From Candidatus Hydrothermales bacterium (GTDB lineage Bacteria > Hydrothermota > Hydrothermia > Hydrothermales > JAJRUZ01), in NCBI GenBank assembly GCA_039630575.1, contig JBCNUW010000001.1, forward strand, positions 86,492 to 150,491: 64,000 nucleotides of DNA, read 5' to 3'. This document shows, one piece after another, positions 15,847-47,476 of this stretch (positions within the stretch are counted from its first letter, which is position 1; the number at the start of each line of letters is the position of its first letter). The position numbers and the translations under genes are program-made. The notes beneath the pieces are model-generated. The model saw only the letters and a list, made by a program, of their open reading frames with translations, was not told where the DNA came from and did no database searches.

Positions 15847-18189
15847 ATGATTAAATTAGTTTTGTTTTTATATCCCCTCTATTTTACTCCTGGGGAAAAT
15901 TTTTTCCCAAGTTATCCATTTGCGAGTCAGAATATTTACTTTAATCCAGCCCTTATAGGTTCCGAATTTAACCCAAGTTTTACCTTTTCCTTTTTATCAA
16001 CCAACCTTGCTCTTACAAATAATGGATTATCTATATCACTATACAACGATATTATGTCTGCTCATGGTGATTCTATTACAAAATCTTTAAAAGAGAGCTT
16101 CTTTAAAAACATCGGGTCCTCATGGAAAACAAATCACCTTTCATATTTTTCACCCTTTTCATTTTCTTTAGGAAGATTTGCTTTTGGTTTAAGGGCTATC
16201 CAGGGTTTAATTTTGATGTTACCCGAACCATGGCTAAGGATTCTACTCTACGGAAATGAGCTCGATAAAACCTATTTTGCAAACAAAGACAATACTGCAT
16301 TTCAAGTTTTAAACTTAATTGAAACAAGAATAGGTTCCGGTTATGGTATTTTTTTAGATAAAGAGGAAAAGTACAGGTTAATTTATGGTTTAAATTTTGC
16401 CTTCTATATATCAGGACCTTACGTTGAGCTAAATGAAGTTAATGTAAGATTAAATTCTTACTATGACGGAATAACTGGGGATGACTATATTAAATTAAAG
16501 TTAGACACAACCTTTCTAAACTTTGGATATTCAATAGATTTAGGTTTTGGTTTAGAGTATAAAAAAATCCTAAATTTTTCTCTAGGTTTAAACAATATAA
16601 TATCAAATATAAACTTTTCAAAAGGTATTACCTATATCCACTATGGAAACCTTGACACTTTTTATTTAGGGGAGGGAATAGATTTTGATACTTTGTATAC
16701 TGACAAATTAGATACCATACCAGGTGCCTTCAGTGTAAAACTTCCTCTTATTTTGAAATTTTCAACCTTCTATAGACATCCAGATGATAAGTATAGATTA
16801 TTTTTAATATGGGAGCAGGGATTCAAATATACAGCATTTTCAACAAAAACACCGAGGATATCTCTTGGAGGGGAATATTTTGTTCATCCAAGAATACCAT
16901 TAAGATTTGGTTTTGTTTTTGGAGGCTACGAGGGGTTAAGTCTATCTTTAGGCGCAGGTATAGTAAGCAGAGAAATTTCCTCAATAAATATTGGAATTTC
17001 ACAACATAGGGGAATACTATTAGGTTCAAGGGGTATCTCATTCTCATTTTTAACGGAATTTCATTCCACATTTAAAGGAAAATTTAAATTTAAAATAATG
17101 GATTCTCTTACAAATAAACCTATAGCTAATGCTATACTTAAACTAACAGATAAAAACAATAAAAAAGTTTTTGAAGGTCAAAGTGATGTAAACGGTGAAA
17201 TAAGAGGAGAAATTAAAAAAGGCGAATATAAATTTGAAGTCGAAGCTGAGAATTATTACTCTAAGTCAGGATTTGTGGAAATAAAACAAGGTAGAGAAAA
17301 AGAAGAAAAAATTTTACTTAAAACAAGATTTGGTTATCTTACATTATATGTTAAAGATAGAGAGACTCTTAAGCCATTAGGTAATGTAGATGTTACTGTT
17401 CAGTACAAAGAAAAAACAACAAAAGTAAAAACTGATTCATCAGGTATATTAAAGCTTAGACTGGAAAGAGGAGAGTATAAATTTAAGTTTGAACATCCTG
17501 ACTATATGGTGAGGACAGAAAGCTACAAGGTTGAATCTGGAGTTCAAAAGGAAGTTGAAGTTTTCTTAGCAACTCGTTTTGGTACTGTTAAGGGTAAAGT
17601 TTACAATGCTCAGACACTTGAACCCCTTAAAGGTCAACTGGAAATTTATCCTGAAGGTAAGGACAGTGTTATAGAAAAGTTAGAAACAACTTTAGATGGT
17701 AGCTATAATGTAAAACTCTCTGAAGGGATATACAAATTCAAAGTAAAAGTTTCAAATTATATTCCTCAAGAAGCTTATGTTCAAGTAATTGGAGGGAAAG
17801 AATCTCTAAAAGACTTTGCTATGCTTAAGGAAAAAATGGTTTTTACTTTTAGAAACATCTATTTTGATTTTAATAAGGCTACAATAAGACCTGAATCTTA
17901 CCCAGTTTTAGATTCTATTGCCCTTATGTTAAAGGATAACCCAACTATAATTGTTGAAATAGGCGGACATACAGACGAGAGAGGAACAAGATCCTATAAC
18001 AAAAATTTAAGTCAGCAAAGAGCCGAATCTGTCAGAAATTACCTTTTTGAAAAACATGGTATAGAGCTTTTAAGACTCATTCCTTTAGGATACGGAGAAG
18101 ATTTACCTATTATAAAGAATGCTAAAACAGAGGAAGAGCATCAATTAAACAGAAGAGTAGAATTTAAAATTTTAGGAGAAAAGAGATGA
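15847..18189 (+). CDS. OmpA-family outer-membrane protein: N-terminal beta-barrel-like domain, three carboxypeptidase-regulatory-like (CarboxypepD_reg) repeats, C-terminal OmpA peptidoglycan-binding domain
   Basis: C-terminus FDFNKATIRPESYPVLDSIALMLKDNPTIIVEIGGHTDERGTRSYNKNLSQQRAESV...NRRVEF is a classic OmpA_C; three ~80-aa repeats with GEYKF / GIYKF cores; aromatic-rich alternating N-terminal ~400 aa. Confidence 0.8.
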   Translation: MIKLVLFLYPLYFTPGENFFPSYPFASQNIYFNPALIGSEFNPSFTFSFLSTNLALTNNGLSISLYNDIMSAHGDSITKSLKESFFKNIGSSWKTNHLSYFSPFSFSLGRFAFGLRAIQGLILMLPEPWLRILLYGNELDKTYFANKDNTAFQVLNLIETRIGSGYGIFLDKEEKYRLIYGLNFAFYISGPYVELNEVNVRLNSYYDGITGDDYIKLKLDTTFLNFGYSIDLGFGLEYKKILNFSLGLNNIISNINFSKGITYIHYGNLDTFYLGEGIDFDTLYTDKLDTIPGAFSVKLPLILKFSTFYRHPDDKYRLFLIWEQGFKYTAFSTKTPRISLGGEYFVHPRIPLRFGFVFGGYEGLSLSLGAGIVSREISSINIGISQHRGILLGSRGISFSFLTEFHSTFKGKFKFKIMDSLTNKPIANAILKLTDKNNKKVFEGQSDVNGEIRGEIKKGEYKFEVEAENYYSKSGFVEIKQGREKEEKILLKTRFGYLTLYVKDRETLKPLGNVDVTVQYKEKTTKVKTDSSGILKLRLERGEYKFKFEHPDYMVRTESYKVESGVQKEVEVFLATRFGTVKGKVYNAQTLEPLKGQLEIYPEGKDSVIEKLETTLDGSYNVKLSEGIYKFKVKVSNYIPQEAYVQVIGGKESLKDFAMLKEKMVFTFRNIYFDFNKATIRPESYPVLDSIALMLKDNPTIIVEIGGHTDERGTRSYNKNLSQQRAESVRNYLFEKHGIELLRLIPLGYGEDLPIIKNAKTEEEHQLNRRVEFKILGEKR

Positions 18190-21114
18190 TGGGTTAAAAA
18201 GGTTATTATTTTCAAAACCCAAGAGATTTTCCCTTTTTTGGATTCTGCTTTTTATATTTTCAAAAATATTAAGGTATCTTTCAAATAAATATTTAATTAC
18301 TTCGTAGCTATCTATCTTCTTAAAGATCTTTATAAATTTTCTTATAACAATAAGATGTAAAAAAGGAATGGGATATTTAAAGATCATTTCAAGAAACTTT
18401 TCTAATTCTTCAAAAGTTAGCCTTTTATCTTTTCTAACAAGCTTTAAGGATTGAATATATAGATTTTGCAATACCAAGTTTTTAGTTAAATCTTCAATTT
18501 CAGTTATACTAAAACTATTTATCAAACTTTCATCCTCTGACCCAAGAATAAGTAAAAAAAAGATGTAAGGGTCTTTTAAATAGGATAAGTTAATATATTT
18601 TGTTTCTATTTTATTTCCTTCATATAAAGTTTTAATTGAGTTGAAATAAAAAGAATAAAAAGAGTTATAAAATCTCTGTGAAAAGGAAATCCCAATTTTA
18701 TTGGACAATTTGAATAAATTTTCATTTTTAAAAATTAAACCTAAAAAACACTTTATCTTTTCAGATTCCATAACATTTTCATGGTTCATTTCCATAAAAG
18801 AAGATTTTTCAGCCTCCATTGATGCTTCTAAAGAATCTTCGAAGTTTCCGGTCCAGAATAGAAAGTCTGACAAATTTATTTTAAATTCTGAGTTAAAATA
18901 ACCCTTTTTCAAAAGATCTCTTTCAGACCTTTTTAAGTATAAAAGAGCATCAAAAAATTTTCCTTCTCTCTTTGCGATTTCAGAATAGAGCAAATTTATT
19001 TTAGCTAAAGTTACTTCATTCATAACTTTAACATCCTGAAGAAATTTTCTGGCAGACTCAAAAATTCCCTTTTCAATATAGGATTTAGCTAAACTGAAAT
19101 TAATTTCGTTCCATCTTGAGTCATTTTTGTCAGTCAAAAGTAAAGCTTTGTGTAAATTCGAAATAGCCTTTTCAAAATCTTTTGATAAATAAGAGTATAT
19201 ACCCTTAAGATAAAGATATTCTCCCATTTCAAGAGGTCTTATCTTGTGATTTTTTAGTACAACTTCTTCAATTTTTTCAAATATGAAAAAAGGGATAAAA
19301 CCTGTGCCCTCCTTTAGGAATTTGTCTAAAGTCTTTAAGGAATATTCCCAAGCTATGTCATATTTTTTTGCTTTTAGTGATTGTATAAATAAAAAGTATG
19401 GATTATTTTCAGCCCAATCTGTATATTTAAGGGTATCTACAATCTCTTCGTGTAATTTGTTTTTAATAGTGTCAGGTATAGAGTTATAAATAACTTCTCT
19501 AAGAAGAGGATTAATGAAATGTATAGTATTATTTTCTATTCTTAAAATATCCTTAGAAATAAGACCAACTAAGCTTTTTTCTATTTTTTCTGAAAAATGT
19601 TTCGAAAGTGGAGAATCTAAATCTAACTCTACTATCAAGCTCAATATTTCAAGTAAATCTTTTTCATATATTGTTAATTCGTTAACTTGTGAAAGGGCAA
19701 AGCTCATTAGAGATAAAGGAAGCTCTTCTTTTCCTTCAAGATCTTTACCTTTCAACTTTAAACTTTTCAAGTACTGTGCTATAAATAGTGGTATACCACC
19801 AGTGATTGTTGCAATTTTATAAATTGTTTCAAACTTAACATTCGGATAATATTTAGAAACTAATTCCATTACCTCATCTACATTTAGTGGTTTTAGATCA
19901 ATCTTATAAATGTTTGTTAAATCTAAATTAACTGGAAGGGTTCTTGCAGTTAAAATTATAAATGTACTATCAAGTTTATTTTTGATAAAGTTAATTAACT
20001 CAATCGAAAATGAATCAGCCCTATCTATGTCATCGAAAATTATAATTAACTTTCCTCTTTTTTTTGTTATTATTCTTAAAAAATCTAAAAAAAGATACTT
20101 TATTCTTTCACTTATATCTTTTTCTTCAGATGTTGAAGTTAATACATCCAAAAAAAATTCTATATATCTTTTCAGAAATTTAAACTCTTCCTTACTCATT
20201 GAATTTACAAGAAAAGTTTTTAATGGATAAAATGGTTCATCTGTATAAACTTCACACCCCCTTAGTTTTATTATGAAATTTTTTTCCTTTAAATTTTTAA
20301 CATAATTATCAAGAAAAAAGGTTTTCCCAACTCCTGCCTCACCTGTTAAAATAACAGATCTACTCTTTCCGGATTCTAAATCCTTTAAAAATTTATCAAA
20401 TAACTCCTTTGCATCTTTTCTCTCAACAAAAGGAACATCAAAAATTCCAGGTTCATACATCTTGCTTCCTGAAATCAATGTATAAATTTCCATTTTTTCT
20501 GTCTTTCCTTTTAACCTAATATTGCCCAAATATTCAAATTCAAAAAATTCAAGTGAAGCTTCATATATATCAAAAGAAACATATTTTTTATTTCCAAGAT
20601 TAGTAGAGAGTCTTTGAGCAGTGTTAACACAGTCACCAAGCGCAGTCAAAGACATTCCTTCTCCAGGTTCAACTTCACCAAAAAAAGACCATCCAGAAGA
20701 TATACCAATTCCGTAATCACACATTTCAGAAAGCTCACTTTTAATTAAATTTTCTATCTTAAAGGAAAAGTTTAAAACTTTAAAAACTAAATCTCTTTCG
20801 AATTCGTTATGACCAAAGATAAAAAGACCACCTTCATGAAAATTAAACTTTTCCAAAAAAGCGTCATAGGATCTGGCTAATCTTTCTACTTCGTATAAAA
20901 AATTTGTAAATTTGTAAACTAAATTTAAATCTATTTTAACTTTCCATTTTAAAGTTACAAAAAGAGAAATAATATATTTTTTTCTTAAAATAAACGGGAT
21001 TTTTGTTGGTCTTGTATCTTTAAGTTTTTGTCCACAATTAGTACAAAAATTGTATGAGTTTTTTAAATTTACATTACATCTCTTACACTGAACTATTTCT
21101 ATAGTACCATGCAT
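18172..21114 (-). CDS. multidomain signalling protein: N-terminal CxxC-x10-CxxC zinc ribbon, degenerate class III nucleotidyl-cyclase domain, STAND/AAA_16 P-loop NTPase, C-terminal TPR repeats
   Basis: CKRCN...CTNCG; cyclase domain keeps ALGDCVNTAQRL (Asn/Arg motif) but has K/L and H where the two metal-binding Asp normally sit (VYKFTNF, FIFGHNEF); Walker A LTGEAGVGKTFF; TPR-like helical repeats in the last ~450 aa. Confidence 0.8.
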   Translation of the reverse strand: MHGTIEIVQCKRCNVNLKNSYNFCTNCGQKLKDTRPTKIPFILRKKYIISLFVTLKWKVKIDLNLVYKFTNFLYEVERLARSYDAFLEKFNFHEGGLFIFGHNEFERDLVFKVLNFSFKIENLIKSELSEMCDYGIGISSGWSFFGEVEPGEGMSLTALGDCVNTAQRLSTNLGNKKYVSFDIYEASLEFFEFEYLGNIRLKGKTEKMEIYTLISGSKMYEPGIFDVPFVERKDAKELFDKFLKDLESGKSRSVILTGEAGVGKTFFLDNYVKNLKEKNFIIKLRGCEVYTDEPFYPLKTFLVNSMSKEEFKFLKRYIEFFLDVLTSTSEEKDISERIKYLFLDFLRIITKKRGKLIIIFDDIDRADSFSIELINFIKNKLDSTFIILTARTLPVNLDLTNIYKIDLKPLNVDEVMELVSKYYPNVKFETIYKIATITGGIPLFIAQYLKSLKLKGKDLEGKEELPLSLMSFALSQVNELTIYEKDLLEILSLIVELDLDSPLSKHFSEKIEKSLVGLISKDILRIENNTIHFINPLLREVIYNSIPDTIKNKLHEEIVDTLKYTDWAENNPYFLFIQSLKAKKYDIAWEYSLKTLDKFLKEGTGFIPFFIFEKIEEVVLKNHKIRPLEMGEYLYLKGIYSYLSKDFEKAISNLHKALLLTDKNDSRWNEINFSLAKSYIEKGIFESARKFLQDVKVMNEVTLAKINLLYSEIAKREGKFFDALLYLKRSERDLLKKGYFNSEFKINLSDFLFWTGNFEDSLEASMEAEKSSFMEMNHENVMESEKIKCFLGLIFKNENLFKLSNKIGISFSQRFYNSFYSFYFNSIKTLYEGNKIETKYINLSYLKDPYIFFLLILGSEDESLINSFSITEIEDLTKNLVLQNLYIQSLKLVRKDKRLTFEELEKFLEMIFKYPIPFLHLIVIRKFIKIFKKIDSYEVIKYLFERYLNIFENIKSRIQKRENLLGFENNNLFNPSSLFS

Positions 21115-21117
21115 GTT

Positions 21118-23352
21118 TTAAAGTCTACGCATAGCCATAGAGGCAGCAAGTTTAACTTGTCCATCTGGATCATTTAAAAGTTTTTTCAAAAATTCCATAA
21201 CCTTTTCAGACTTATGCCTTGATAAAATTCTAACAACTTCAACTCTTATCTCAGATGGAAACTTTGGTTTTTTTAAGAAAGTTTTGTCAAAAAGAATTTT
21301 TTCAATTATTGGATAAGCTTTATCAGGTATGTGTTTGATCAAAAAATTTATTGAAGGTATGATAAATTCTCTTGATTCATCTTTATCAAGGGTATTTTTA
21401 ATAAATTGATAAATTAAATCAACACTTTTAAATGTCCCAATTTTTAAAAGAGTTCTCAAACATTCAAGTTTTACATCCTTATTCTGTGTTTCCAAATAGA
21501 CTTCTAATATATCATCTTCAACAGATGAAACATTATATTTTGTAAAGGTCTTTAGCACCTCTAATTTTGTACTGTCTTCTCCCATTTTCAATATTTTAAT
21601 TAAAAGAGGTATACCTTCCTCATCTTTAACTTCTCCTAGAATAATTGCTACATCACGAAGATTTACAAATGATTTACTTTCAAGATCTCTATAAAATTCC
21701 CTTCTATACTCAGCTGGAAAATGAGACAGAATTTTAGCTATCCTCTTTTTTATTGTAATATTTTCCATTTCAGGAAAAATCTCCTTAAGAGCTACAAATC
21801 CCTCTTTTCCCGCAGATAAAAATGCTTCTTCTATTTCCTTCTCTGTCTCATCATCCCATAATTGAGTTAAAAGTACTCTTGTTGAAAATTGAGTACCAAT
21901 TTTCCCAAGTGCCCTTATAGCAACTTTTTTCTTTGATCCCGAATCTAATAAATCTCTAAATGCCTTCTGTATATCTTCAACAATCAATAAAAGATCTTTT
22001 TCTTTAGCAACCATAACAATCTTTTCTAGTCCTTCAATATATGAGAAAATCACAGCAGGATGTTCCTCTTCAAAAACTTTTATTTTCATTAAATTTATTA
22101 TTTTTTCAACAGATCCTAGCTTTTCGGCTCTTAAAAAAGTAATTGCAAAAGAAATTAAAGCATCAATTGCAGAAATCCTTTCATTTTCATTCTCATTTGT
22201 GAGTTTTTCTATAATGGGCTGAAGGAAAGATTCCATCTCTGAAGCAGCTATTCCACCTTCAAGCTCTCTTTCTAAAAACTTCAATTTTTTCTCTCCTGTT
22301 ATTACAAGCTTTTTTTCTCTTGCTATCCTTTCAAGTAATTCAGTTTCTTTGTCTTCATGTGATTTTTTAGTTGTTGTATAAATTTTTCTTTTTTGGAGTA
22401 TGTCCTTTAACATATCTGGCAACTCGCTTTCTCCTTCCTTTAATCCCGAAAAAAGCAATACAAGTTCTCTATCATCCATTTCATCAAGAATTTTTCTTAT
22501 TGACTCCGCTATCTCTCTATACTTTTCAGATTCCTCTATAAACCTTATTTTAAGAGCTGGAGATAAAATTTTTAGTATATGTGTAATAACAAGAGAAAAA
22601 TTATGTGAACCATCTTCTCCGTATTTTTCTATTAAATAGTGAGCAACAATTTTTAAAGCTGAAATTAAGTCCTTAACCTTTAAACTATCAAATTCTTTTT
22701 TTAAATTTAGACCCATCATATCTAAAAAAATATCTTTTACTAACTCCTCCTTTTCAATATCTTGTAACTTATTATATTCTCTTAAAAAACCGTCAAATTT
22801 ATCTTGAACCTCTTTACTTAATATTTTCTCTTCTTCTTTTTTAATTTCCGAAACAACTTTAGATAAATGATCCTTTTCTTCTAAAGTCAAATCTAATTTT
22901 AATTCTCTTTCTGTAGAACTTAATTTGAACTTTACCTCATTTAATCTAATCCTTTCAACATTTCTCTGCAGAAGTAGTTCAGATGGGTCTTTAACCTCTA
23001 AGAACTTTTTTAAAGGTAAAGTAAAAATTTCAAAGAAAATTCTTAGATCATCCTGAATTACATCCCTGTCAATCGAAATACTTTCAATTTTAAGTCTAAA
23101 GAAATGTTTCGCCATAGATTGAATAGCTGGAATTTTGCTTATATCAATCCTTGTATCTTCAAAAAGTATGATATTTTCAAAGAAATAAACGGATATTGTG
23201 TTATACTTTAATGGGAATTTTTTAATTATCTCGAGAACCTGCTCAGCTGCTTTATTGAAAGCAGGGTGCCCTGCTGGGTACATCTTTGAATATGTTAACC
23301 CTACTCCTATCTGTTTTAAAAGTTCAATTACTAAGGATTCTATCTGTAACAT
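21118..23352 (-). CDS. HEAT/PBS-lyase-repeat protein (744 aa), unknown function
   Basis: Repeated alpha-helical HEAT_2-like units (LLNDPDGQVKLAASMAMRRL; VAIRALGKIG; ERISAIDALISFA); overlaps both neighbouring ORFs, so probably translationally coupled. Confidence 0.7.
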   Translation of the reverse strand: MLQIESLVIELLKQIGVGLTYSKMYPAGHPAFNKAAEQVLEIIKKFPLKYNTISVYFFENIILFEDTRIDISKIPAIQSMAKHFFRLKIESISIDRDVIQDDLRIFFEIFTLPLKKFLEVKDPSELLLQRNVERIRLNEVKFKLSSTERELKLDLTLEEKDHLSKVVSEIKKEEEKILSKEVQDKFDGFLREYNKLQDIEKEELVKDIFLDMMGLNLKKEFDSLKVKDLISALKIVAHYLIEKYGEDGSHNFSLVITHILKILSPALKIRFIEESEKYREIAESIRKILDEMDDRELVLLFSGLKEGESELPDMLKDILQKRKIYTTTKKSHEDKETELLERIAREKKLVITGEKKLKFLERELEGGIAASEMESFLQPIIEKLTNENENERISAIDALISFAITFLRAEKLGSVEKIINLMKIKVFEEEHPAVIFSYIEGLEKIVMVAKEKDLLLIVEDIQKAFRDLLDSGSKKKVAIRALGKIGTQFSTRVLLTQLWDDETEKEIEEAFLSAGKEGFVALKEIFPEMENITIKKRIAKILSHFPAEYRREFYRDLESKSFVNLRDVAIILGEVKDEEGIPLLIKILKMGEDSTKLEVLKTFTKYNVSSVEDDILEVYLETQNKDVKLECLRTLLKIGTFKSVDLIYQFIKNTLDKDESREFIIPSINFLIKHIPDKAYPIIEKILFDKTFLKKPKFPSEIRVEVVRILSRHKSEKVMEFLKKLLNDPDGQVKLAASMAMRRL

Positions 23353-23959
23353 TTAAAGTTTCCTCCTTTAAAAGATAAAAATCTATATTTTGAACTACTT
23401 TTTTCTCATATAAGTTTTTTGGAAAAACTTTCTCAATTTCACCAAGTAAAACTATCTCATCTTTACTTATTAATGATTTTAAATAATTAATCATACTAAT
23501 CAATTCAGAAGAGATAATTATATAGGATTTTTCTCCTAATCTTAGAGGATAAACAAGGCATCTCTCATATATACCTATCATCTTCATTCTAATATCTTTT
23601 CTTATAACATCTGAATTAAAAAATTCTCTAACATCAATCAAAAAATTTATAAATTCATTAATATCGAGACTTTTACCAAGTCCAAATATAATCTCAATTT
23701 CATCACCTATGTATTGATTTACATAACCTCCATTTTTTTCAGCTATCATTTTTAAATTTGAAAATAAAAGAGAAAGATTAGATCTTAATTCAAAAAGTTC
23801 AATTCTCTCAGTTAAATTGGTAAAACCTATAATATCCATCCTGAAAACAAGAACATCTACTTCTATAGGTCCTTTCTTGATATAAAATCCGCAACTCTGA
23901 CAAAAATTTCCATTACTATCAATTCGAGAACCACACTTTAGACAAATCTCACTTAGCAT
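23324..23959 (-). CDS. small zinc-ribbon + class III nucleotidyl cyclase domain protein (211 aa)
   Basis: CLKCG...CQSCG ribbon; VDVLVFRMDIIGFTNL and GGYVNQYIGDEIEIIFG keep both metal-binding Asp of adenylyl/guanylyl cyclases; no GDxVNxAxR motif in the C-terminal half. Confidence 0.75.
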   Translation of the reverse strand: MLSEICLKCGSRIDSNGNFCQSCGFYIKKGPIEVDVLVFRMDIIGFTNLTERIELFELRSNLSLLFSNLKMIAEKNGGYVNQYIGDEIEIIFGLGKSLDINEFINFLIDVREFFNSDVIRKDIRMKMIGIYERCLVYPLRLGEKSYIIISSELISMINYLKSLISKDEIVLLGEIEKVFPKNLYEKKVVQNIDFYLLKEETLNVTDRILSN

Positions 23960-34996: not shown

Positions 34997-36295
34997 TCAA
35001 TCATAAATATTTGTAGAAACCATAACAGAATAAAAGGGAACGGGATCATAGTTTTCAAAATAAAAGAAGTTCCCCTTTAACGGATTACTATAAGAAAAAG
35101 AAATTAAAAAAGAGGAGTAAAATTTACCCTCCAAGATAATTTTTAAAAGGTAGTTTCTATCAAAAGAGTCAAAGCTTTTAATCAAATACAAAAAATAATT
35201 TTTCTCTTTGTTTTTAAAAATAAAAAATTTTAAGGAAATCGAGTAAATTTCTTTGTAAAAATCTCTATTCCTTAACATTTTAAATTTTATAAAAAATCTC
35301 AAAAAATCAAAAAAATATAATGTATCACAGGTAAAAATTGAGAAAAAGTTTCCTGAGAGTAATTTAGGCATCTTAAATGGGTAACTTAGATAAAGATGAT
35401 TTTCAGAATTAAAATATTCAAAAAGTAATAGAAAGCTACTTTTTTTATATTTAAAACTTAGATCAAACTTTAAACCATTTCTTTTCATATTTTTTTTATC
35501 ATCAAAATAATCTGTTAAAGAATCAAAACAAAAAGGAAATAAAGGCTTTTCAATAAAGTAAGAAAATTTAAAGTGTTTAAATTTTAAACCACTTTCAAAA
35601 GTAAATCTTTTATTTTTTGATTCACTACCTATCTCAATATCAGTGAAATTGAAAAAAAGAGAGGTTTCAATCTTTAAATTATTAAAGTTTTTTTTATCCT
35701 TTGTTAGAAGAAATTTATAATTTGAAAAAGTTATTGAATAGAAAAAATGATTTAAGTTGTTACGGAAATTTATTCCATATTTTAATTTTCTTCTCTTCGA
35801 ATTTTCCTGGGAGTAAAAAATAGAAAAAGAGAGGGGGTTAAAAGTAAATTCAAATTTTTCTAACTTTTGAAAATTGTTAAAGGGATTAGCATCAAAAATT
35901 GAATATTCAAAATTTAAAGGAAAAGGGGTTAATCTAAAAAAGAAGTAATAATTATGTTTTGCAAAGTTATAATACAATTTATTTTTATGGATAGAAATAA
36001 AAATAAGGGATTTTAATTTATTTTCAAAAAGTGGAAAAAAGGAAGATACATTATTTTGTTCGGTATTAAAAGCACTTCTAAAAAGTAAAAATCTAGTAAT
36101 GACACTTTGAGAATCAATTTCAACAAATTTTTGATGAAGATTTTTGTAATAGTAATTAGGTGAAAAATCATTAATTGAATCGGTATAAAAAAAGGGAACA
36201 AAAAGGGGATTTAAAATAAAAAGAGGATTACCAGAAAAGAAGTCAGGTTCTTTAAATTCGAGAAAATACAAAAATATTAAAACATGAATACCCAT
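34997..36295 (-). CDS. hypothetical F/Y/N/K-rich protein, possibly an outer-membrane beta-barrel
   Basis: 432 aa; alternating aromatic/polar pattern; ends ...FYSVMVSTNIYD; no motif recognised. Confidence 0.4.
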   Translation of the reverse strand: MGIHVLIFLYFLEFKEPDFFSGNPLFILNPLFVPFFYTDSINDFSPNYYYKNLHQKFVEIDSQSVITRFLLFRSAFNTEQNNVSSFFPLFENKLKSLIFISIHKNKLYYNFAKHNYYFFFRLTPFPLNFEYSIFDANPFNNFQKLEKFEFTFNPLSFSIFYSQENSKRRKLKYGINFRNNLNHFFYSITFSNYKFLLTKDKKNFNNLKIETSLFFNFTDIEIGSESKNKRFTFESGLKFKHFKFSYFIEKPLFPFCFDSLTDYFDDKKNMKRNGLKFDLSFKYKKSSFLLLFEYFNSENHLYLSYPFKMPKLLSGNFFSIFTCDTLYFFDFLRFFIKFKMLRNRDFYKEIYSISLKFFIFKNKEKNYFLYLIKSFDSFDRNYLLKIILEGKFYSSFLISFSYSNPLKGNFFYFENYDPVPFYSVMVSTNIYD

Positions 36296-39693: not shown

Positions 39694-41811
39694 TTAAAAC
39701 CTAATTGTAAGAGGAACCCAAACAGCCATAGGATTTCCAAACTGGTCTTTAGCAGGTTCAAAAATATAGCCCTTTGCCGCCTCTACTGCTGAGTTATCAA
39801 GAAAATCATATCCGCTACTTTTTAAAATCTTAACATCTTTTACCTTGCCATTCTCATCTACCAAAACTCTCAAAAGAACACTGCCTCTTGCTCCTAACTT
39901 CCTCGCTATATCTGGATATGTTGGTTTAACCTCCTGCTTTACAACAGGTAAAACAGTAGGAATAGCCTGTTGAGGAGGTGGAGCCTCCTCCGGTTTTTCT
40001 TTCTCTTCAATTGGAGCTAAAGGTTCCTCTTCAACTGGTTTTTCAGAAACTGGAGGTTCTTCTTTCTTTACTGCCTCTTCTGCAATCCTTTTCTGTAAAA
40101 TTTCTTCAGCTGTTATTTCAGGTTTAGGAACTACTTGAGGTTTTGGTTCCTCAGGTTTAATAGCTACTGTCTCAGTTTTTCTTATTTTTTCTTCTTCAAA
40201 GGTAATTTCTTCTTTAGTTCCTACTTCCTCTTCTTTTTTAACAATTTCAAAACTTACTCTCTCTACTCTTTCTTGAGTAGGGATCCAAACTATGTCAAGG
40301 TTGGAAACAACCAGTTCAAGTGGGAAATTATCTATGTTTTTAACTCTATTAGAGAAAGCAAAAATCTCCTGAGGAACTACTAAGGGTGTAACTGGTAAAT
40401 CCTCTAATAAAATTTTTTGAACAAGTCTTAACATTTTTTTAGCATTTTTTCTATTTAAGGTCATCATTGATGAATTTAAAAGAGAATCAACTTTCTTGTT
40501 ACTGTAACCCATAAAATTAAAGATTCCATCCGTGCTGAAAAGTGGGCTTATATCAGCCTTTTCATTTAAAGGGTAAGAGAGAATAAAAATATCAAAATCA
40601 AAATTAATCAATTTTGATATGAATGAGAAAGGATCAAGTGGCAAAAGATTAACTTTTATAAGTTCTGTTTTTTCTAGGTCATTTTTTATAATTTCTGTAA
40701 TTTTTTCATATATTTTTTGAGTATTATCGTAAATCAGATTTATTACAAAAGGTTTTCTTTTTGTGTATCCCATCTGATTCAAAATAGAAACTGTTTCATC
40801 CAAGTTAGCTCTTTTTAAATCTATTAGGTTGCTATCATAAGCCCAAATTGAAGGTGGAATTATTGATTTAGCTTTTAACCCATAACCTTTAAAAACACTT
40901 TTTATAATATCATCAACATTTATTAAACCTGAAATTTTAGACCTTAATTCAATATTATCAAAGGGTTTTCTTTTTGTATTCCATCCAACAAAAATTACTC
41001 TATTTGACTCGTAATTTTTAATTTTGCCATTTTTATAATCTCTTAATCCATCCATAATCACTTCTGGAATAAGTGAAAAACCTACATCCACAATATCCAT
41101 TTTTAGCGCTTCAGCTACATCAAAAGGTGTGGGATATATTTTAAAAACTATTTTATCTAAGTAGCCTGTTTTTTCAAAATATTCATCAAACTTTTCAAGA
41201 GTGAGAAAATCGCCCCTTTTGTATTCGGTGACTCTGTATGGACCGTTACCAACAGGTTTATAAAAAAATTCAGAATTTCTTATATCTTCCACATCCTTAA
41301 GTATATGTTCAGGTAAGGGATATATTTCACAGTCAATGAGCTGAGAGGAATATGTATTTGTAAACTCTATTTTTAAAACATGATCAGACAATTTTTCTAT
41401 TTTTCTAATAAATTGAAAGTTTGCTCTCAAAAGTGAAGTTGAACCTGGAGAAGTTATGACCTTATAGGAAAATATAAAATCTGCTGCAGTAACTGGTTTT
41501 CCATCATGCCACTTTGCGTCTTTTCTTAAATAAAAGGTTATAGTTTTTAAATCTTCAGAAAATTCCCATTCACTTGCAATTCCTGGATAAACCCTGTTTT
41601 TTTCAACTCTTATTAGTGGACAAAAGATTAGATCGAATATTGAATTATCCTGTCTTGGTGAAGGGAAAATGGGTATTAAGGACTCGAAATCCTGCACAAT
41701 TCCTATTCCCAAAACTCCTCCTTTTTCCGGATTTTTTGGAATTTCCCTTCCTAATCTAACACAGAAGTTAATATAAAAAATGGTAAAAATTAAAAAAATA
41801 AACCTTAACAT
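39694..41811 (-). CDS. chimeric protein: periplasmic solute-binding protein family 5 (OppA/DppA-like) domain + Pro/Glu/Lys-rich linker + TonB C-terminal domain
   Basis: N-terminal signal peptide; SBP_bac_5 signature PGIASEWEFSEDLKTITFYLRKDAKWHDGKPVTAADFIFSY; ~110-aa EP/KP-rich spacer; C-terminus YPDIARKLGARGSVLLRVLVDENGKVKDVKILKSSGYDFLDNSAVEAAKGYIFEPA...VPLTIRF typical of TonB_C; no internal TM segment. Confidence 0.75.
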   Translation of the reverse strand: MLRFIFLIFTIFYINFCVRLGREIPKNPEKGGVLGIGIVQDFESLIPIFPSPRQDNSIFDLIFCPLIRVEKNRVYPGIASEWEFSEDLKTITFYLRKDAKWHDGKPVTAADFIFSYKVITSPGSTSLLRANFQFIRKIEKLSDHVLKIEFTNTYSSQLIDCEIYPLPEHILKDVEDIRNSEFFYKPVGNGPYRVTEYKRGDFLTLEKFDEYFEKTGYLDKIVFKIYPTPFDVAEALKMDIVDVGFSLIPEVIMDGLRDYKNGKIKNYESNRVIFVGWNTKRKPFDNIELRSKISGLINVDDIIKSVFKGYGLKAKSIIPPSIWAYDSNLIDLKRANLDETVSILNQMGYTKRKPFVINLIYDNTQKIYEKITEIIKNDLEKTELIKVNLLPLDPFSFISKLINFDFDIFILSYPLNEKADISPLFSTDGIFNFMGYSNKKVDSLLNSSMMTLNRKNAKKMLRLVQKILLEDLPVTPLVVPQEIFAFSNRVKNIDNFPLELVVSNLDIVWIPTQERVERVSFEIVKKEEEVGTKEEITFEEEKIRKTETVAIKPEEPKPQVVPKPEITAEEILQKRIAEEAVKKEEPPVSEKPVEEEPLAPIEEKEKPEEAPPPQQAIPTVLPVVKQEVKPTYPDIARKLGARGSVLLRVLVDENGKVKDVKILKSSGYDFLDNSAVEAAKGYIFEPAKDQFGNPMAVWVPLTIRF

Positions 41812-41828
41812 AATTAACCTCCTTTTTA

Positions 41829-42587
41829 TTATTTTAAAGTAAAAATATTATAATTTGTAAAATTTAAAGGGTCTACAGGAAAACCTCTATCCCATAATTC
41901 AAAATGTAAGTGTGGTCCAGTGCTTCTTCCTGTATTTCCTACTTTACCTAAAATTTCTCCTCTTTTAACCCACTCACCTTTTCTAACTGTTATTTCTTTT
42001 AAATGTCCATAAAAAGTTTTTATGCCATTTTTATGATCAACCCATAAATAAAGTCCAAAATCTTCATCAATACCTTTTTCTTTAACAATTCCTTCAAGGG
42101 GCGATTTCACTGGTGTCCCAAGAGGAGCTACAATATCAACACCTGGATGGATAGGAGAAAAGAAATTACTTATTAGTCCTTTAACAGGAAGATCAAAATA
42201 AAAAGTTAACCCTTTAAATTCCCTTTTACTTAAATCATAACTAAATGTATCTTCTAATTTTAAAACCTCTTTTAAAACTTTTTCTGGTTTTAAAAGATTT
42301 TCAAGCTGACTCGAAAAGGCAACAAATTTTTGAAGTTTTTTCTCGATTTCTATTATTTTTTTCTCTTGATGTTTTGCCTTTTGTACCTCATACTCAAGTA
42401 ATTTCATCTTAGTAAAATTACTAAACATCCAAATTGAAAAAATCAATGAAAAAATTAGAAAAGAAAAAATAAAAAATAAAAAACCTCTTAAAAAATTAAG
42501 AATTAAAGGAGATAAATAAATTTGTCTTACTTTAGATGATCCCTCAGGTATAATTTTTAAAAATAACCCTTTTTCCCTTTTCCTCAA
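41829..42587 (-). CDS. M23 family metallopeptidase with N-terminal TM anchor and coiled coil
   Basis: HPGVDIVAPLGTPV, NTGRSTGPHLHFEL (HxH) motifs. Confidence 0.85.
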   Translation of the reverse strand: MRKREKGLFLKIIPEGSSKVRQIYLSPLILNFLRGFLFFIFSFLIFSLIFSIWMFSNFTKMKLLEYEVQKAKHQEKKIIEIEKKLQKFVAFSSQLENLLKPEKVLKEVLKLEDTFSYDLSKREFKGLTFYFDLPVKGLISNFFSPIHPGVDIVAPLGTPVKSPLEGIVKEKGIDEDFGLYLWVDHKNGIKTFYGHLKEITVRKGEWVKRGEILGKVGNTGRSTGPHLHFELWDRGFPVDPLNFTNYNIFTLK

Positions 42588-43573: not shown

Positions 43574-44570
43574 ACATCTCCTCCATAATTTTTAAAAGTA
43601 ATTTCTTAGTGTTATAGAGATCTTCTTTAAAAATTAAAGAAGCCTTTGAATGAATGTATCTACAGGGAATAGCCATCACCAGAGTCTTTACACCTCTATT
43701 TGTCAAAGAAACTGGTCCACCGTCTGTCGAGCCAGTAAAGGGGATTTTCCATTGAAATTTTATGTTATTTTTAAAGGCAGCCCTTTCAACATAATTTATT
43801 AAAACTTCATTTACTATTAGAGATTTATCCATTTTGGTTATTACAGGGCCATATCCCAACTTAGGGTAATACTCCTCCTCAGGGTGATAAGGTTCAAAAG
43901 CAAAAGTACCCTCGATAATAAAAGCAAGATCAAAATTTCTTCTTGATGATGAAACTCTTGCTCCTAATAAACCTGTCTCCTCTTGAACTGTAAAAACAAA
44001 ATTTGTATCAAAAGGTATCTCTTCATCAAGAATTAAAGAAAGCACCAGAGCTGTTCCTGCTCGGTTGTCAAAAGATTTTCCTTTATAAACTTCCTTTCCA
44101 ATCTCCTCGAATTTTGTCATAAAAACACCTTCTTCACCTATGTCAACTCTACTCTTTGCTTCTTCGCTTGAATAGGCTCCTATATCTATTACGAGATTTT
44201 TGAAACTGTATTCAATCTGCTTTTTTCTATGAGGAGGAAGACTTATAACTATACCTTTAGTACCATTTAAGAAAATAATTTCATTACCAGGTAAAATCTC
44301 CGCATCTAAGCCACCTATTGGTCTAAACTTAAGGTAGCCATCAGAGGTATATCCTGTTACTATAACACCTACTTCATCAATATGAGCCATTACACAAACG
44401 TTTAATTTGATTTCCGCTTTTCCTCTTTTAAACACATAGAGGTTCCCAAAAAAATCTTCTTCATAAAAAATTCCTTTTTCTTCGAGTTTTGATTTAATAT
44501 AGTCCTTTACCTCATCTTCTCTTCCTGAGGGTCCTTTAAGTTCTGATAATTCTTTTAAATATTCTATCAT
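43545..44570 (-). CDS. M42 family aminopeptidase, copy 2 (tandem paralog)
   Basis: LSELKGPSGREDEV, MAHIDEVGVIVT; 341 aa. Confidence 0.8.
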   Translation of the reverse strand: MIEYLKELSELKGPSGREDEVKDYIKSKLEEKGIFYEEDFFGNLYVFKRGKAEIKLNVCVMAHIDEVGVIVTGYTSDGYLKFRPIGGLDAEILPGNEIIFLNGTKGIVISLPPHRKKQIEYSFKNLVIDIGAYSSEEAKSRVDIGEEGVFMTKFEEIGKEVYKGKSFDNRAGTALVLSLILDEEIPFDTNFVFTVQEETGLLGARVSSSRRNFDLAFIIEGTFAFEPYHPEEEYYPKLGYGPVITKMDKSLIVNEVLINYVERAAFKNNIKFQWKIPFTGSTDGGPVSLTNRGVKTLVMAIPCRYIHSKASLIFKEDLYNTKKLLLKIMEEMYGEDFKGIM

Positions 44571-47476
44571 TTTATTCCCATGGAGTTTTTGAGAGAGTCT
44601 ATTTTATTCTTTACAAAATCAGGCAAATTTTTGATTCTTTCAACAAGTTTAAGAACATTTTTAAAGTTAACAGTATCTTTTTTTAAGTAATAGAGAGTAA
44701 GAAGATCCAAAACCAAAAAAGGATCAGCATACCTAAGGCTTAAAGCTTTGTTAAAGTTTTCTTCAGCCTTATCTAACTGTCCCATTCCAAGATAACTTTC
44801 ACCCATTACTCTAAAGATTTCTGGGAATTGGGCTTCTTTTAAAGCGTCTTGTGCCTTAATTAAAGCCTTTTCAAACATACCAGCACGATTATATAGATCT
44901 GCTAATGTTAATTTTACAGCTAACCAAGCCCTTTTTTCGTCTGGTTCATCTCCCTTTATATCTCCCTCAAAAAGCTCAGAAAACTCAAATTCTTTTATTG
45001 CCTTTTCTAAATCACCTACAGACTGATAATAAAGTCCAAGAACTATTGCTAAGGATCTATACTGAGCAAGTAGCCTATCGTGTGTTAAATCCTTAAAAAC
45101 ACTTTCATCCTTTTTTCCATTTTTTATTATTCCCCTATATCTAAATTTTTTATGCAAATATTCCTCAGTTTTTTTAACATCCATCCCAGTTCCAAAAGGA
45201 GAATTTATTTCCTGTTTTATTGGTGTTACTCTGTATACCATTCCTTCAAGTAAAAGGTAGTCTGTATAGTCTTTGTATGCTTTTCTCTCACAAGTCATCG
45301 AAAAAAATAAAGGTGGGGTAGGATTTTTATTTTTACCCTTTTCTAAAACTTCTCTCATAAATTCTTCACCACTTAGAAGAAATATTTCAGGTATTTGGAC
45401 TCCAGTTGGTAAGGTTTTTGTCTTTGTATCCTTGCCAAATTCATAGCCAAAAACTCCAGCAATTATATCTCTTATCATAATATCTCTTATTAAAACTATC
45501 CCTCTTTCTGTCCTAAAAGGAACAAGTTTTTTTATCTCATCATCTGAAAAATGAATTGGAACCCCCCATCTTTTGAGTTGTATGTTATACCAATCTGTAT
45601 TCAAAAGAGAAAGATTAGCAACGATCACATTTTTTTTGTATCCAAATATATTCTGTAAAGCCCATAGGGGAAAAGTATCATTGTCACCATTTGTAAAAAC
45701 TATTCCACCATCATCAACACAAGAAAGAAGATTGTAAGAATAATCCTCTGCTATATAATTTGAACTTCTATCGACCTTATGATAAAAGGCGCTAATTTGC
45801 CATATGGGTATTAAAAGCGAAAAAATTATAAAAATATACCTAAAATAAGGTAGAAATTTTTCTTTTAAATTTTCAAAGGTTAACCTGATAACTTCAAAGA
45901 ATCCAAAACCAGCATATAGGCCAAAAATGAAGTAGCCTGGAATAAAAAAATAATCTCTGTCTCTCACTTCTGTAGGAATTGAGCCCAAAAGCTGTAGAAA
46001 ATTTTGATTATTTGGATCGAAAATTGAAATAACTTCTCTAATTCTTGGAGAAAACAGAATTTTTGGAAACTGTTTAATAAAATCAAGAAAAGTTATGAGG
46101 GTAGAAGGATAATTTAAATTAAGTTGAACAATAAGTCCAAAAGTGCCCATTATAAGGGCACCTCCAAATAAAACAAAACTTTTAATATCAGAGTATAGAT
46201 GAGCTATTATTCCTAAAATTCCTAAAATTACAATAAGAGGTATAAATTGGAAAGAAAAGTAATACAAAAATCCCCAGATCTGGTCTATAAAAGCCCAAAA
46301 TTGATTATAAACAGGAACTGAGATAAATTCTCCCTCTCTTACATTACTTGTTCTTCGTGGGAAAACATTCATAGGTTCGTACTGCTTTCTAGACAAAACA
46401 TCCCAAAAAGCTTGCCAGGTTTTAGGCTCTACTTGATTTATTGGAATATCAAACCTAGATCTTATCAGAAGATAAGCCTCAGGAGTGACTCCTAAAAGAA
46501 TCATTAAAAGTGTGAATCCCCTTGCATCTATGTAAAGTTTTACATAGAGGAAAAATATAATAAATGTTAAAAGTGCTGAAATAAAAATTAATATTTTCCA
46601 GTGATTAAATATGGAAATAAAAGAAATAAGTGCTAAAATAAAGTAAATTAGATCAAAAGAGTTAAAAAGAAACTTTCTGTTGTGTTTTTCCCATAAACTT
46701 AAATAGGTTAAAGTATAACCTAAAAATAAAAAAACTATTAAAGCTCTAAAACTAAAAGGTTCATAAGTCGCTCTTAATGCACCTATAAAAAGAAAGAGGA
46801 AACCTAAGGAAGAAAAAAATTGTACATTTAAAATTTCTTCTTTCTTAACGAAAATTATAAACAAAATCAAAACAGGTACTATAATTAATGACAAAAGATG
46901 TATACCTGAACTTAAAGATAGAAAATAAAAGGCAGTAATTATATACCTTAAAGAATCCTTCTTATCCTTTCTTTCCCACCATGTATATAGAAAGTAAACT
47001 GAAAGGATTATAAAAAATGTTGAAGGCATGTAAGTTTCTGCTTCAATACTACTCCACCAAGTTGTAAAAGCAAAAGGTGCACATATTGATCCCATGAAGG
47101 CTGAAAATTGAATTAAAATATCAGGAACTTTCTTGGAGACTCTGTTTAAAATCTTATATAAAAGCAAATAACCTAATGCAGATGAAAAAGCACCAGAGAG
47201 AATAGAGATAAGTGTGATTTTTTGAACTGTATTTAAAAATGGTACAGGAAGTAAAGCAAAAAACCTTCCAACAATAACATAAAGAGGTGTTCCCGGAGGA
47301 TGAGGAATACCTAAAATATAGGAAGTTGCTAAAAATTCTCCTACATCCCAGAAAACAATTGTGGGAGCTGTTGTTTTAAGGTAAATTAAAAAAGTAATTA
47401 AAAAAGAAAAGAAGAAAAATACCTTAGTTAATTTCCTACTTTCCATAATGTTCTTCCATTTCACCTTCTTCTTCAA
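44567..47476 (-). CDS. DUF2723/TMEM260-like polytopic membrane (putative glycosyltransferase) protein with C-terminal TPR repeats
   Basis: FWDVGEFLATSYILGIPHPPGTPLYVIVGRFFAL N-terminal signature, many TM helices, TPR-like C-terminus; real start may be the internal Met 10 codons downstream. Confidence 0.65.
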   Translation of the reverse strand: MKKKVKWKNIMESRKLTKVFFFFSFLITFLIYLKTTAPTIVFWDVGEFLATSYILGIPHPPGTPLYVIVGRFFALLPVPFLNTVQKITLISILSGAFSSALGYLLLYKILNRVSKKVPDILIQFSAFMGSICAPFAFTTWWSSIEAETYMPSTFFIILSVYFLYTWWERKDKKDSLRYIITAFYFLSLSSGIHLLSLIIVPVLILFIIFVKKEEILNVQFFSSLGFLFLFIGALRATYEPFSFRALIVFLFLGYTLTYLSLWEKHNRKFLFNSFDLIYFILALISFISIFNHWKILIFISALLTFIIFFLYVKLYIDARGFTLLMILLGVTPEAYLLIRSRFDIPINQVEPKTWQAFWDVLSRKQYEPMNVFPRRTSNVREGEFISVPVYNQFWAFIDQIWGFLYYFSFQFIPLIVILGILGIIAHLYSDIKSFVLFGGALIMGTFGLIVQLNLNYPSTLITFLDFIKQFPKILFSPRIREVISIFDPNNQNFLQLLGSIPTEVRDRDYFFIPGYFIFGLYAGFGFFEVIRLTFENLKEKFLPYFRYIFIIFSLLIPIWQISAFYHKVDRSSNYIAEDYSYNLLSCVDDGGIVFTNGDNDTFPLWALQNIFGYKKNVIVANLSLLNTDWYNIQLKRWGVPIHFSDDEIKKLVPFRTERGIVLIRDIMIRDIIAGVFGYEFGKDTKTKTLPTGVQIPEIFLLSGEEFMREVLEKGKNKNPTPPLFFSMTCERKAYKDYTDYLLLEGMVYRVTPIKQEINSPFGTGMDVKKTEEYLHKKFRYRGIIKNGKKDESVFKDLTHDRLLAQYRSLAIVLGLYYQSVGDLEKAIKEFEFSELFEGDIKGDEPDEKRAWLAVKLTLADLYNRAGMFEKALIKAQDALKEAQFPEIFRVMGESYLGMGQLDKAEENFNKALSLRYADPFLVLDLLTLYYLKKDTVNFKNVLKLVERIKNLPDFVKNKIDSLKNSMGIK

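Follow-up and report, generated by a model that had tools for sequence, protein, structure and literature searches.

A predicted lipoprotein family of the WOR-3 phylum that joins a family-5 substrate-binding domain to a TonB C-terminal domain

In a 64,000-nucleotide stretch of contig JBCNUW010000001.1 from Candidatus Hydrothermales bacterium (assembly GCA_039630575.1, positions 86,492 to 150,491 of the forward strand; hereafter the window), one gene encodes a predicted lipoprotein in which a family-5 binding protein, a disordered spacer of TonB length and a TonB C-terminal domain (TonB_C) form a single polypeptide. A sequence-only reading of this DNA, made from the letters and a list of open reading frames (ORFs), had pointed to the fusion and called the arrangement unusual. 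Our searches show that the architecture is real, and the homologs indicate that it is a conserved family found throughout WOR-3 rather than a one-off. This combination, its predicted lipoprotein anchor and its phylum-wide conservation were not met in the literature searched, each domain singly being textbook material. By analogy with known systems, and at a probability of roughly 0.4, we propose that the protein may be a motor-independent periplasmic tether, which would hold the binding protein near outer-membrane TonB-box proteins or near the wall.

Domain architecture of the fusion protein

The gene starts with ATG and runs as an uninterrupted single ORF of 705 amino acids (aa) on the minus strand; the ORF list confirms this part of the earlier reading, and both peptide strings quoted there are present in the translation. 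The product is 100% identical to P0001, 'MAG: TonB family protein [Candidatus Hydrothermales bacterium]'. The order that had been described, a substrate-binding protein (SBP) domain followed by an EP/KP-rich spacer and a canonical TonB_C, is borne out by Pfam and NCBIfam profile searches and by structure prediction, with a mean predicted local distance difference test (pLDDT) score of 87 in an AlphaFold2 (AF2) model made from an alignment of 57 sequences. The coordinates of all features are collected in Table 1.

In the N-terminal part, Pfam places SBP_bac_5 at residues 74–413 (E=1.9e-67, 228 bits, cut-off 32), and AF2 gives a confident bilobed SBP fold at about residues 25–520, with pLDDT mostly >90. 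Using Foldseek against the PDB, target-normalised TM-scores of 0.82–0.90 were obtained for CtaP (5isu), AppA (1xoc), NikZ (4oet) and CcNikZ-II (8efz), with MppA also among the structural neighbours, and phmmer against the PDB is consistent with this result (5isu, E=1.3e-41). The ligands of these proteins are variously peptides, Ni-(L-His), glutathione and murein tripeptide, so no specific ligand is assigned to the domain. The NCBIfam models matched by the SBP part, namely Opp4A (179 bits against a cut-off of 650), NikA, DppA and OppA, all score far below their equivalog cut-offs. The closest unfused SBP homolog, P0010 (29% identity), is directly followed by OppB- and OppC-type permeases in an SBP-OppB-OppC operon. 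Judged from this operon and from structural neighbours that bind peptides or Ni-His, the SBP subfamily is of the transporter type. Peptidase genes recur near the fusion gene (M42 twice, M19, PepT-like), and we considered them as a sign of peptide specificity; the idea was dropped, as such genes are too common in genomes and their placement is inconsistent.

At the C-terminus, where the earlier reading had placed TonB_C and advised a profile search, Pfam (PF03544) matches residues 629–705 with E=2.9e-20 and 72.9 bits (cut-off 24.6), and NCBIfam tonB_Cterm (TIGR01352) scores 63.7 bits (cut-off 27.1). AF2 is confident at residues 620–705 (pLDDT 90–97), and the YP pair that accompanies the domain, Y632 and P633, is invariant in 18 homologs. 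From the domain family we infer that this TonB_C may interact with TonB boxes.

The two domains are separated by a spacer that had been estimated at ~110 aa and likened to the linker of TonB. It is in fact 118 aa long, rich in P (14%), E (26%) and K (14%) and disordered in the AF2 model, with pLDDT <50 at residues 532–567 and 584–613; the protein thus has the Pro-rich spacer of a TonB, and in TonB a Pro-rich region of ~70 residues lies inside the periplasm-spanning linker (PMC10771500). Across the family the linker measures 82–126 aa, and its composition drifts from P/E/K-rich to P/T/A-rich. Embedded in it is a short motif, AEEILQ in the window protein, which 14 of 18 family members have, whereas shuffling with composition preserved predicts 0.30 (maximum 4 in 2,000), and which sits in the sole helix predicted by AF2 for the linker (568–582). 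We considered whether this motif could be the segment through which TonB binds ExbD (PMC10771500), but this finds no support, since the motif is acidic and predicted to be helical, whereas canonical TonBs with a related TonB_C show a hydrophobic, β-strand-like segment after the transmembrane (TM) helix.

A separate observation touches the linker. GT-C-type membrane glycosyltransferases (TMEM260-like, YfhO, PMT_2) lie near the fusion gene in four otherwise unrelated contexts, and at one of these loci, L090, the YfhO-type gene stops 1 nt upstream of the fusion start. These recurring neighbours raise the possibility that the P/T/E-rich linker is O-glycosylated.

A predicted lipoprotein leader in place of the TonB anchor

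The sequence-only reading had assigned a signal peptide and had remarked that an N-terminal TonB TM anchor is absent. An export leader is indeed there, but it is predicted to be a lipoprotein signal instead of one of the plain type: Cys17 is invariant across an alignment of 18 family members with identity down to 26%, and all 18 leaders fit the lipoprotein pattern, in which an N-region with positive charge and a short hydrophobic stretch lead into a lipobox with the invariant Cys. The uncharged run before the Cys spans 6–16 residues and is free of His in every leader, and in none of the 18 was a TonB-type N-terminal TM helix with a conserved His (SHLS motif) found. The remark on the missing anchor therefore stands, yet the N-terminus would still be tethered to a membrane, by the predicted lipid. 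Lipoboxes in most of the 18 homologs are canonical (LAGC, LLSC, IISC, VAGC, VFGC); that of the window protein, INFC, has an atypical residue at -1. Similar short, Cys-ended leaders occur in other ORFs of the window (LVSC, FIGC, FLFC, LLSC), and FLFC also has Phe at -1. The residue at +2 after the lipobox Cys varies among the homologs and is never Asp.

On these features, the leader is best described as a lipoprotein signal, as opposed to a plain signal peptide or a signal anchor of the TonB type, and as such it also provides the export signal of a family-5 SBP. Given a lipoprotein signal with an invariant Cys, the mature protein would be attached to a membrane through a lipid at residue 17 and not through a helix. 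With a predicted cleavable leader standing where TonB has its TM helix and essential His, the fusion protein should be unable to transduce the proton motive force itself.

These results also bear on whether the protein could be a genuine energy-transducing TonB variant, with an uncleaved signal anchor coupled to ExbB/ExbD and the SBP domain inserted before the spacer. The order anchor–spacer–TonB_C and the spacer length do mimic TonB, and NCBI labels members 'TonB family protein'. Set against this are the shortness of the uncharged run, its ending in an invariant lipobox Cys, the missing His or SHLS-type motif, the fact that ExbB/ExbD is adjacent in none of the genomic contexts, and the helical linker motif, which is unlike the β-strand segment after the TM helix in canonical TonBs (PMC10771500). 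We consider a TonB variant of this kind highly improbable. The fusion protein is accordingly filed as neither a TonB nor an ABC SBP, while each half clearly belongs to its own domain family, because it lacks the N-terminal helix, the His and the ExbBD linkage of the former and the permease linkage of the latter.

Table 1. Coordinates of the fusion gene, its parts and neighbouring features; positions are those of the window unless a locus is named.
Feature	Position	Strand	Description and basis
Whole gene	39694..41811	(-)	705-aa lipoprotein (predicted): SBP_bac_5 domain + disordered linker + TonB_C domain; ORF list, Pfam, NCBIfam
Lipoprotein signal peptide (predicted), residues 1-17 (MLRFIFLIFTIFYINFC)	41761..41811	(-)	Lipobox Cys at position 17, invariant in 18 homologs
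Family-5 (cluster C, peptide/nickel-type) substrate-binding domain, ~residues 25-511	40279..41739	(-)	Pfam, AF2, Foldseek, phmmer
Disordered P/E/K-rich linker, residues 512-629 (118 aa)	39925..40278	(-)	AF2 pLDDT, composition
Linker motif + short helix, residues 568-582 (AEEILQKRIAEEAVK)	40066..40110	(-)	Core [PAVTS]-E-x-[IL]-L-[EQKRA]
TonB_C domain, residues 630-705	39697..39924	(-)	Invariant YP motif (Y632 P633); protein ends on last β-strand (…TIRF)
17-nt spacer downstream of M23 gene	41812..41828	(-)	Shine-Dalgarno AAGGAGG 7 nt before ATG; read from sequence
Upstream neighbour, membrane-anchored M23 (MepM/ShyA-like) peptidoglycan endopeptidase	41829..42587	(-)	NCBIfam MepM-like 79 bits, below cut-off
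Recurring GT-C genes	44567-47476; L092 223-2232; L090 7555-9999; L007 2851-4221	(-) in window	

Distribution and conservation of the fusion

A word-indexed search returned nine clusters with both domains, at 37–100% identity and named Candidatus Hydrothermales or candidate division WOR-3. Scanning species genomes added two WOR-3 genomes at ~30% identity, both of whose proteins carry both domains and one of which is a complete 2.85-Mb chromosome (CP070664.1). A profile made of the C-terminal SBP lobe, the linker and TonB_C was run exhaustively against 1.84 billion representative proteins. About 14 clusters (50% identity) match the whole profile in one stretch, all of them 658–716 aa long, and the remainder of the best 150 profile matches are TonB_C-only proteins. 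All 18 aligned members, down to 26% identity, score for both Pfam domains. The same fusion, for which the earlier reading had advised a search of related genomes, is thus present there in uninterrupted form, and its description as unusual is justified by the small number of clusters and by a domain pair that was not met in the literature searched. Neither the SBP–TonB_C combination, nor its lipoprotein anchor, nor its phylum-wide conservation was found described in that literature.

All named bacterial sources of the fusion are WOR-3, which in the NCBI taxonomy is the phylum Caldifarciminota, with Candidatus Hydrothermales as the order Caldifarciminales. The databases label members 'TonB family protein [candidate division WOR-3 bacterium]', 'peptide/nickel transport system substrate-binding protein' or 'hypothetical protein', an inconsistency that would distort any tally of Ton systems or ABC transporters in these genomes. 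One family member, P0278 (RLG11538.1), is labelled 'hypothetical protein [Candidatus Pacearchaeota archaeon]' and lies on a 10.6-kb contig; as a TonB_C lipoprotein is implausible in an archaeon, this contig is probably mis-binned.

Mean pairwise identity is highest in TonB_C (43%), intermediate in the SBP domain (36%) and lowest in the linker (22%). Together with a linker length kept at 82–126 residues, these regional identities show both globular domains to be under purifying selection, as judged from the alignment, and the length of the spacer to be selected as well.

An architecture this rare could in principle arise from an assembly, frameshift or gene-calling artefact that fused two separate genes, and its a priori rarity is the one point in favour of such an origin. 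The sequence-only reading had itself named a stop or frameshift between the domains as what might undo the fusion. Assemblies from four independent sources (NCBI, JGI, ENA and Logan) encode the same uninterrupted ORF at 26–100% identity, all with both domains, and a strong Shine-Dalgarno sequence precedes the start codon in the window. Because of the independent assemblies, an artefact can be regarded as excluded for practical purposes.

TonB_C-only searches aimed at canonical WOR-3 TonBs returned mostly short fragments and small TonB_C proteins of the FCB group. As a side observation, metagenomes hold many proteins in which 2–8 tandem TonB_C domains follow a signal peptide or lipobox and a TM helix is lacking (P0130, P0134, P0169, P0189, P0209, P0242 and P0259, for example); P0209 has the lipobox VFSC, and P0134, at 1080 aa, has 8 matched stretches. 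From their sequences, these look like a large and apparently undescribed class of motor-less TonB_C proteins.

Genomic context

The surroundings were compared over ±10 kb per locus in nine distinct contexts, and 286 kb of fusion-bearing DNA were searched. In the window and three related genomes the gene order is PPDK, TMEM260-like GT-C, M42, M42, M23, fusion, RibD, AspRS and PyrR, and this Hydrothermales-like order is kept even at 38% protein identity (synteny L001–L005). Elsewhere the neighbours differ: UDP-glucose dehydrogenase, an epimerase and MscS at L006 and L007; a divergent M19 dipeptidase at L088; a PF09818 ATPase at L089; GT4 upstream and a PepT-like peptidase, sugar-type permeases and M23 downstream at L091; and a TMEM260-like gene at L092. 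The absence of adjacent ABC permease or ATPase genes, noted from the window beforehand, holds there, and none of the nine contexts has an Opp/Dpp-type permease or ExbB/ExbD nearby, so the fusion gene is an orphan in this respect in all of them. Within the window, no Opp-type ABC permease or ATPase, ExbB/ExbD or TonB-dependent receptor occurs in the Pfam-annotated part (31 ORFs scanned directly and 31–50 kb through the syntenic locus L001, with six ORFs of 74–214 aa outside the scan), and tblastn gave none in the whole window. The only binding-protein-dependent permeases encoded there are PstCAB-PhoU. A BPD_transp_1 pair near the L091 fusion was considered for the missing permeases; NCBIfam types it as UgpA/UgpE/MalFG-like sugar permeases, not Opp/Dpp.

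At L087 the neighbour is a divergently oriented TonB-dependent receptor, 360 bp from the fusion gene, which is 654 aa long and BtuB-like and has the TonB box PEIVVTA. It is preceded by a cobalamin riboswitch (RF00174, 88 bits; L087 9708–9899, minus strand), and we rejected it as a partner of the fusion since it is a B12 receptor under riboswitch control of its own. By sequence, the locus does show that fusion-bearing organisms have conventional TonB-box receptors.

The M23 endopeptidase directly upstream was likewise rejected as a conserved functional partner. Its adjacency is confined to the Hydrothermales-like clade (L001–L005) and is absent in L006, L007, L087–L090 and L092; as RibD, AspRS and PyrR are equally syntenic in that clade, the adjacency reflects genome conservation, not function. 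This weakens a second alternative, namely that the protein is a periplasmic sensor in which a ligand on the SBP domain alters the contacts of TonB_C or the linker motif and so regulates a partner such as an M23 hydrolase or a signalling protein. SBPs, those of family 5 included, often double as signalling inputs (PMC8050422), M23 is directly upstream in the one clade and another M23 lies within 7 kb at L091, and the conserved linker motif suggests an extra binding partner. With the M23 link lost in seven loci and otherwise explained by general synteny, and with no signalling domain fused or consistently adjacent, a sensor appears quite unlikely.

The neighbourhoods bear more favourably on a third alternative, in which the protein belongs to the architecture of the envelope: with a lipid anchor in the outer membrane and TonB_C bound to peptidoglycan or to an outer-membrane protein, it would be a structural tether or spacer of the unusually thick WOR-3 envelope, and its SBP domain would be a scaffold or an MppA-like binder of peptidoglycan stem peptides, not feeding a transporter. 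Orphan family-5 SBP-like lipoproteins with non-transport roles do exist, mycobacterial LpqW being an example. The gene is an orphan in all nine contexts while conserved across the phylum, envelope genes are frequent neighbours (M23 endopeptidase, GT-C glycosyltransferases, MscS, GT4), and MppA is among the structural neighbours. The WOR-3 isolate sy37 is a diderm with inner and outer membranes, and its thick wall and sensitivity to shaking also agree with such a role (PMC12285271). Nonetheless, the SBP domain keeps its full, confidently modelled bilobed fold and its family-5 signature, the window already encodes a dedicated OmpA-domain tether (15847–18189), and the link to envelope genes is circumstantial, as no neighbour is conserved across the phylum. 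We regard this role as rather unlikely.

Proposed function

The reading that we prefer is that of a motor-independent periplasmic tether. The lipid anchor would fix the binding domain at a membrane. TonB_C would dock on the wall or, by β-strand addition, on an outer-membrane protein (a TonB-dependent receptor) with a segment resembling a TonB box. Consistent with this, fusion carriers are diderms, as reported for sy37 (PMC12285271), and possess TonB-box receptors, as seen at L087. The spacer is conserved in length and matches the periplasm-spanning linker of TonB, so the two ends of the protein would most likely be at work at separate levels of the envelope. The binding domain would thereby stay close to a site of entry through the outer membrane and could catch the substrate arriving there, peptides being the likeliest; heterotrophy on peptides is predicted for relatives in the lineage (PMC4791363). 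The captured substrate might be passed to an inner-membrane importer encoded elsewhere, or the binding domain may act as a periplasmic sink. A narrower form of the proposal, a relay across the envelope that is motor-independent and specific to the WOR-3 phylum, in which TonB_C plugs the lipid-anchored SBP into TonB-box outer-membrane transporters and the linker motif serves as a third docking site, is put forward tentatively and with some doubt.

Several points weigh against a tether that serves uptake. Neither an Opp/Dpp-type permease nor ExbB/ExbD was found in the nine contexts or in the 286 kb of fusion-bearing DNA, and no partner was identified in these contexts. The single adjacent receptor, at L087, is of the B12 type, and being BtuB-like and controlled by a cobalamin riboswitch it is probably there by coincidence. 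Bound to a TonB box, a TonB_C that is not energised would be a competitor of the real TonB. Moreover, few ABC transporters are reported for sy37 (PMC12285271), so that there may be no cognate importer. Ton and Opp systems go unmentioned in the WOR-3 genome papers and in the supplement on sy37.

Relation to known systems

Research on Gram-negative transport has yet to settle how a substrate travels from a TonB-dependent receptor to its binding protein in the periplasm. To our knowledge, the sole evidence for a physical link there is the binding of TonB to FhuD and BtuF in vitro. A natural SBP–TonB_C gene fusion, kept under selection phylum-wide, provides 'Rosetta-stone' evidence that both modules can work side by side, and if the relay reading is true, it would give the first evidence of a covalent kind that the TonB C-terminal domain and a periplasmic binding protein act as one unit, an idea long under debate. 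The architecture would surprise a transport specialist, and it makes the presumed hand-off between TonB and a binding protein testable. As a test system it is simple: a single polypeptide with two folds that are well understood, in a host that has been cultured (strain sy37).

Like E. coli TonB, the fusion has a C-terminal TonB_C with YP that ends on its last β-strand, a long, disordered Pro/Glu/Lys-rich spacer and an N-terminus that would be attached to a membrane. It differs from TonB in lacking the TM helix, the His/SHLS motif and ExbB/ExbD linkage, in its predicted anchoring through a lipoprotein Cys, and in the 490-residue binding protein that stands between anchor and spacer. With the cluster C/family-5 SBPs (OppA, DppA, AppA, CtaP, NikZ) it shares the full bilobed SBP_bac_5 fold, matching CtaP, AppA and NikZ best, and a lipoprotein leader, which is common among SBPs; it differs from them in its ~200-residue C-terminal extension (linker and TonB_C) and in never lying beside Opp/Dpp permease or ATPase genes in the nine contexts.

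A functional parallel may lie in the non-covalent TonB–FhuD and TonB–BtuF interactions reported in E. coli (Carter 2006; James 2009, as cited in PMC3813593). There too, a binding protein meets the periplasmic part of TonB, with the proposed effect of placing the binding protein under the outer-membrane receptor (PMC3813593). The E. coli contacts are transient, between separate proteins and with class III (Peripla_BP_2) binders, whereas the link in the fusion is covalent, its binder belongs to family 5 and its TonB part has no motor, so that any functional equivalence would hold by analogy. We infer on this basis that the fusion may be a covalent, 'Rosetta-stone' version of these contacts.

TonB homologs with extra domains are also known from Bacteroides (TonB7–11; PMC10350073). 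Like these and the tandem TonB_C lipoproteins, some of which have a lipobox and no TM helix, the fusion uses TonB_C as a portable periplasmic module, and it shows that such a docking module is also used without the ExbBD motor. The partners described there are CarbopepD_reg_2, DUF4488, Peptidase_M56 or a second TonB_C; none is a solute-binding protein, unlike in the fusion. Substrate-binding domains covalently fused to a transporter are familiar from GlnPQ and OpuA of Gram-positives, where the partner is the permease itself, and LpqW is a family-5-like lipoprotein that left ABC transport without a fusion partner. All three serve as precedents, the former two for tying an SBP covalently to its working partner; the fusion would differ from them in that its partner is an outer-membrane-directed docking domain.

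Other features of the window

Promoter and terminator scans gave counts equal to shuffled expectation. The window has a G+C content of ~30%, and this value together with its thermophile-type genes resembles 'Thermoproauctor', a low-GC branch (27.4% G+C) of the Pyropristinus/WOR-3 lineage that comes from streamer communities in Yellowstone.

The OmpA-domain protein mentioned above (15847–18189, plus strand) is 780 aa long and combines SpaA/CarboxypepD_reg domains with a C-terminal OmpA peptidoglycan-binding domain, reminiscent of the PorE-type outer-membrane–wall tethers discussed in PMC12204202. Next to it, three genes on the minus strand (18172–23959) encode a 980-aa zinc-ribbon/AAA_16 (STAND)/TPR protein, a 744-aa HEAT-repeat protein and a 211-aa double-zinc-ribbon protein with a weak nucleotide-cyclase match, and may form a signalling or defence module. 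Finally, a 432-aa Phe/Asn/Tyr-rich ORF with no Pfam match (34997–36295, minus strand) is conserved at L001 and L004 between PyrR and pilin-like (N_methyl) genes plus an ABC-2 transporter, and may encode a novel outer-membrane or pilus-associated protein.

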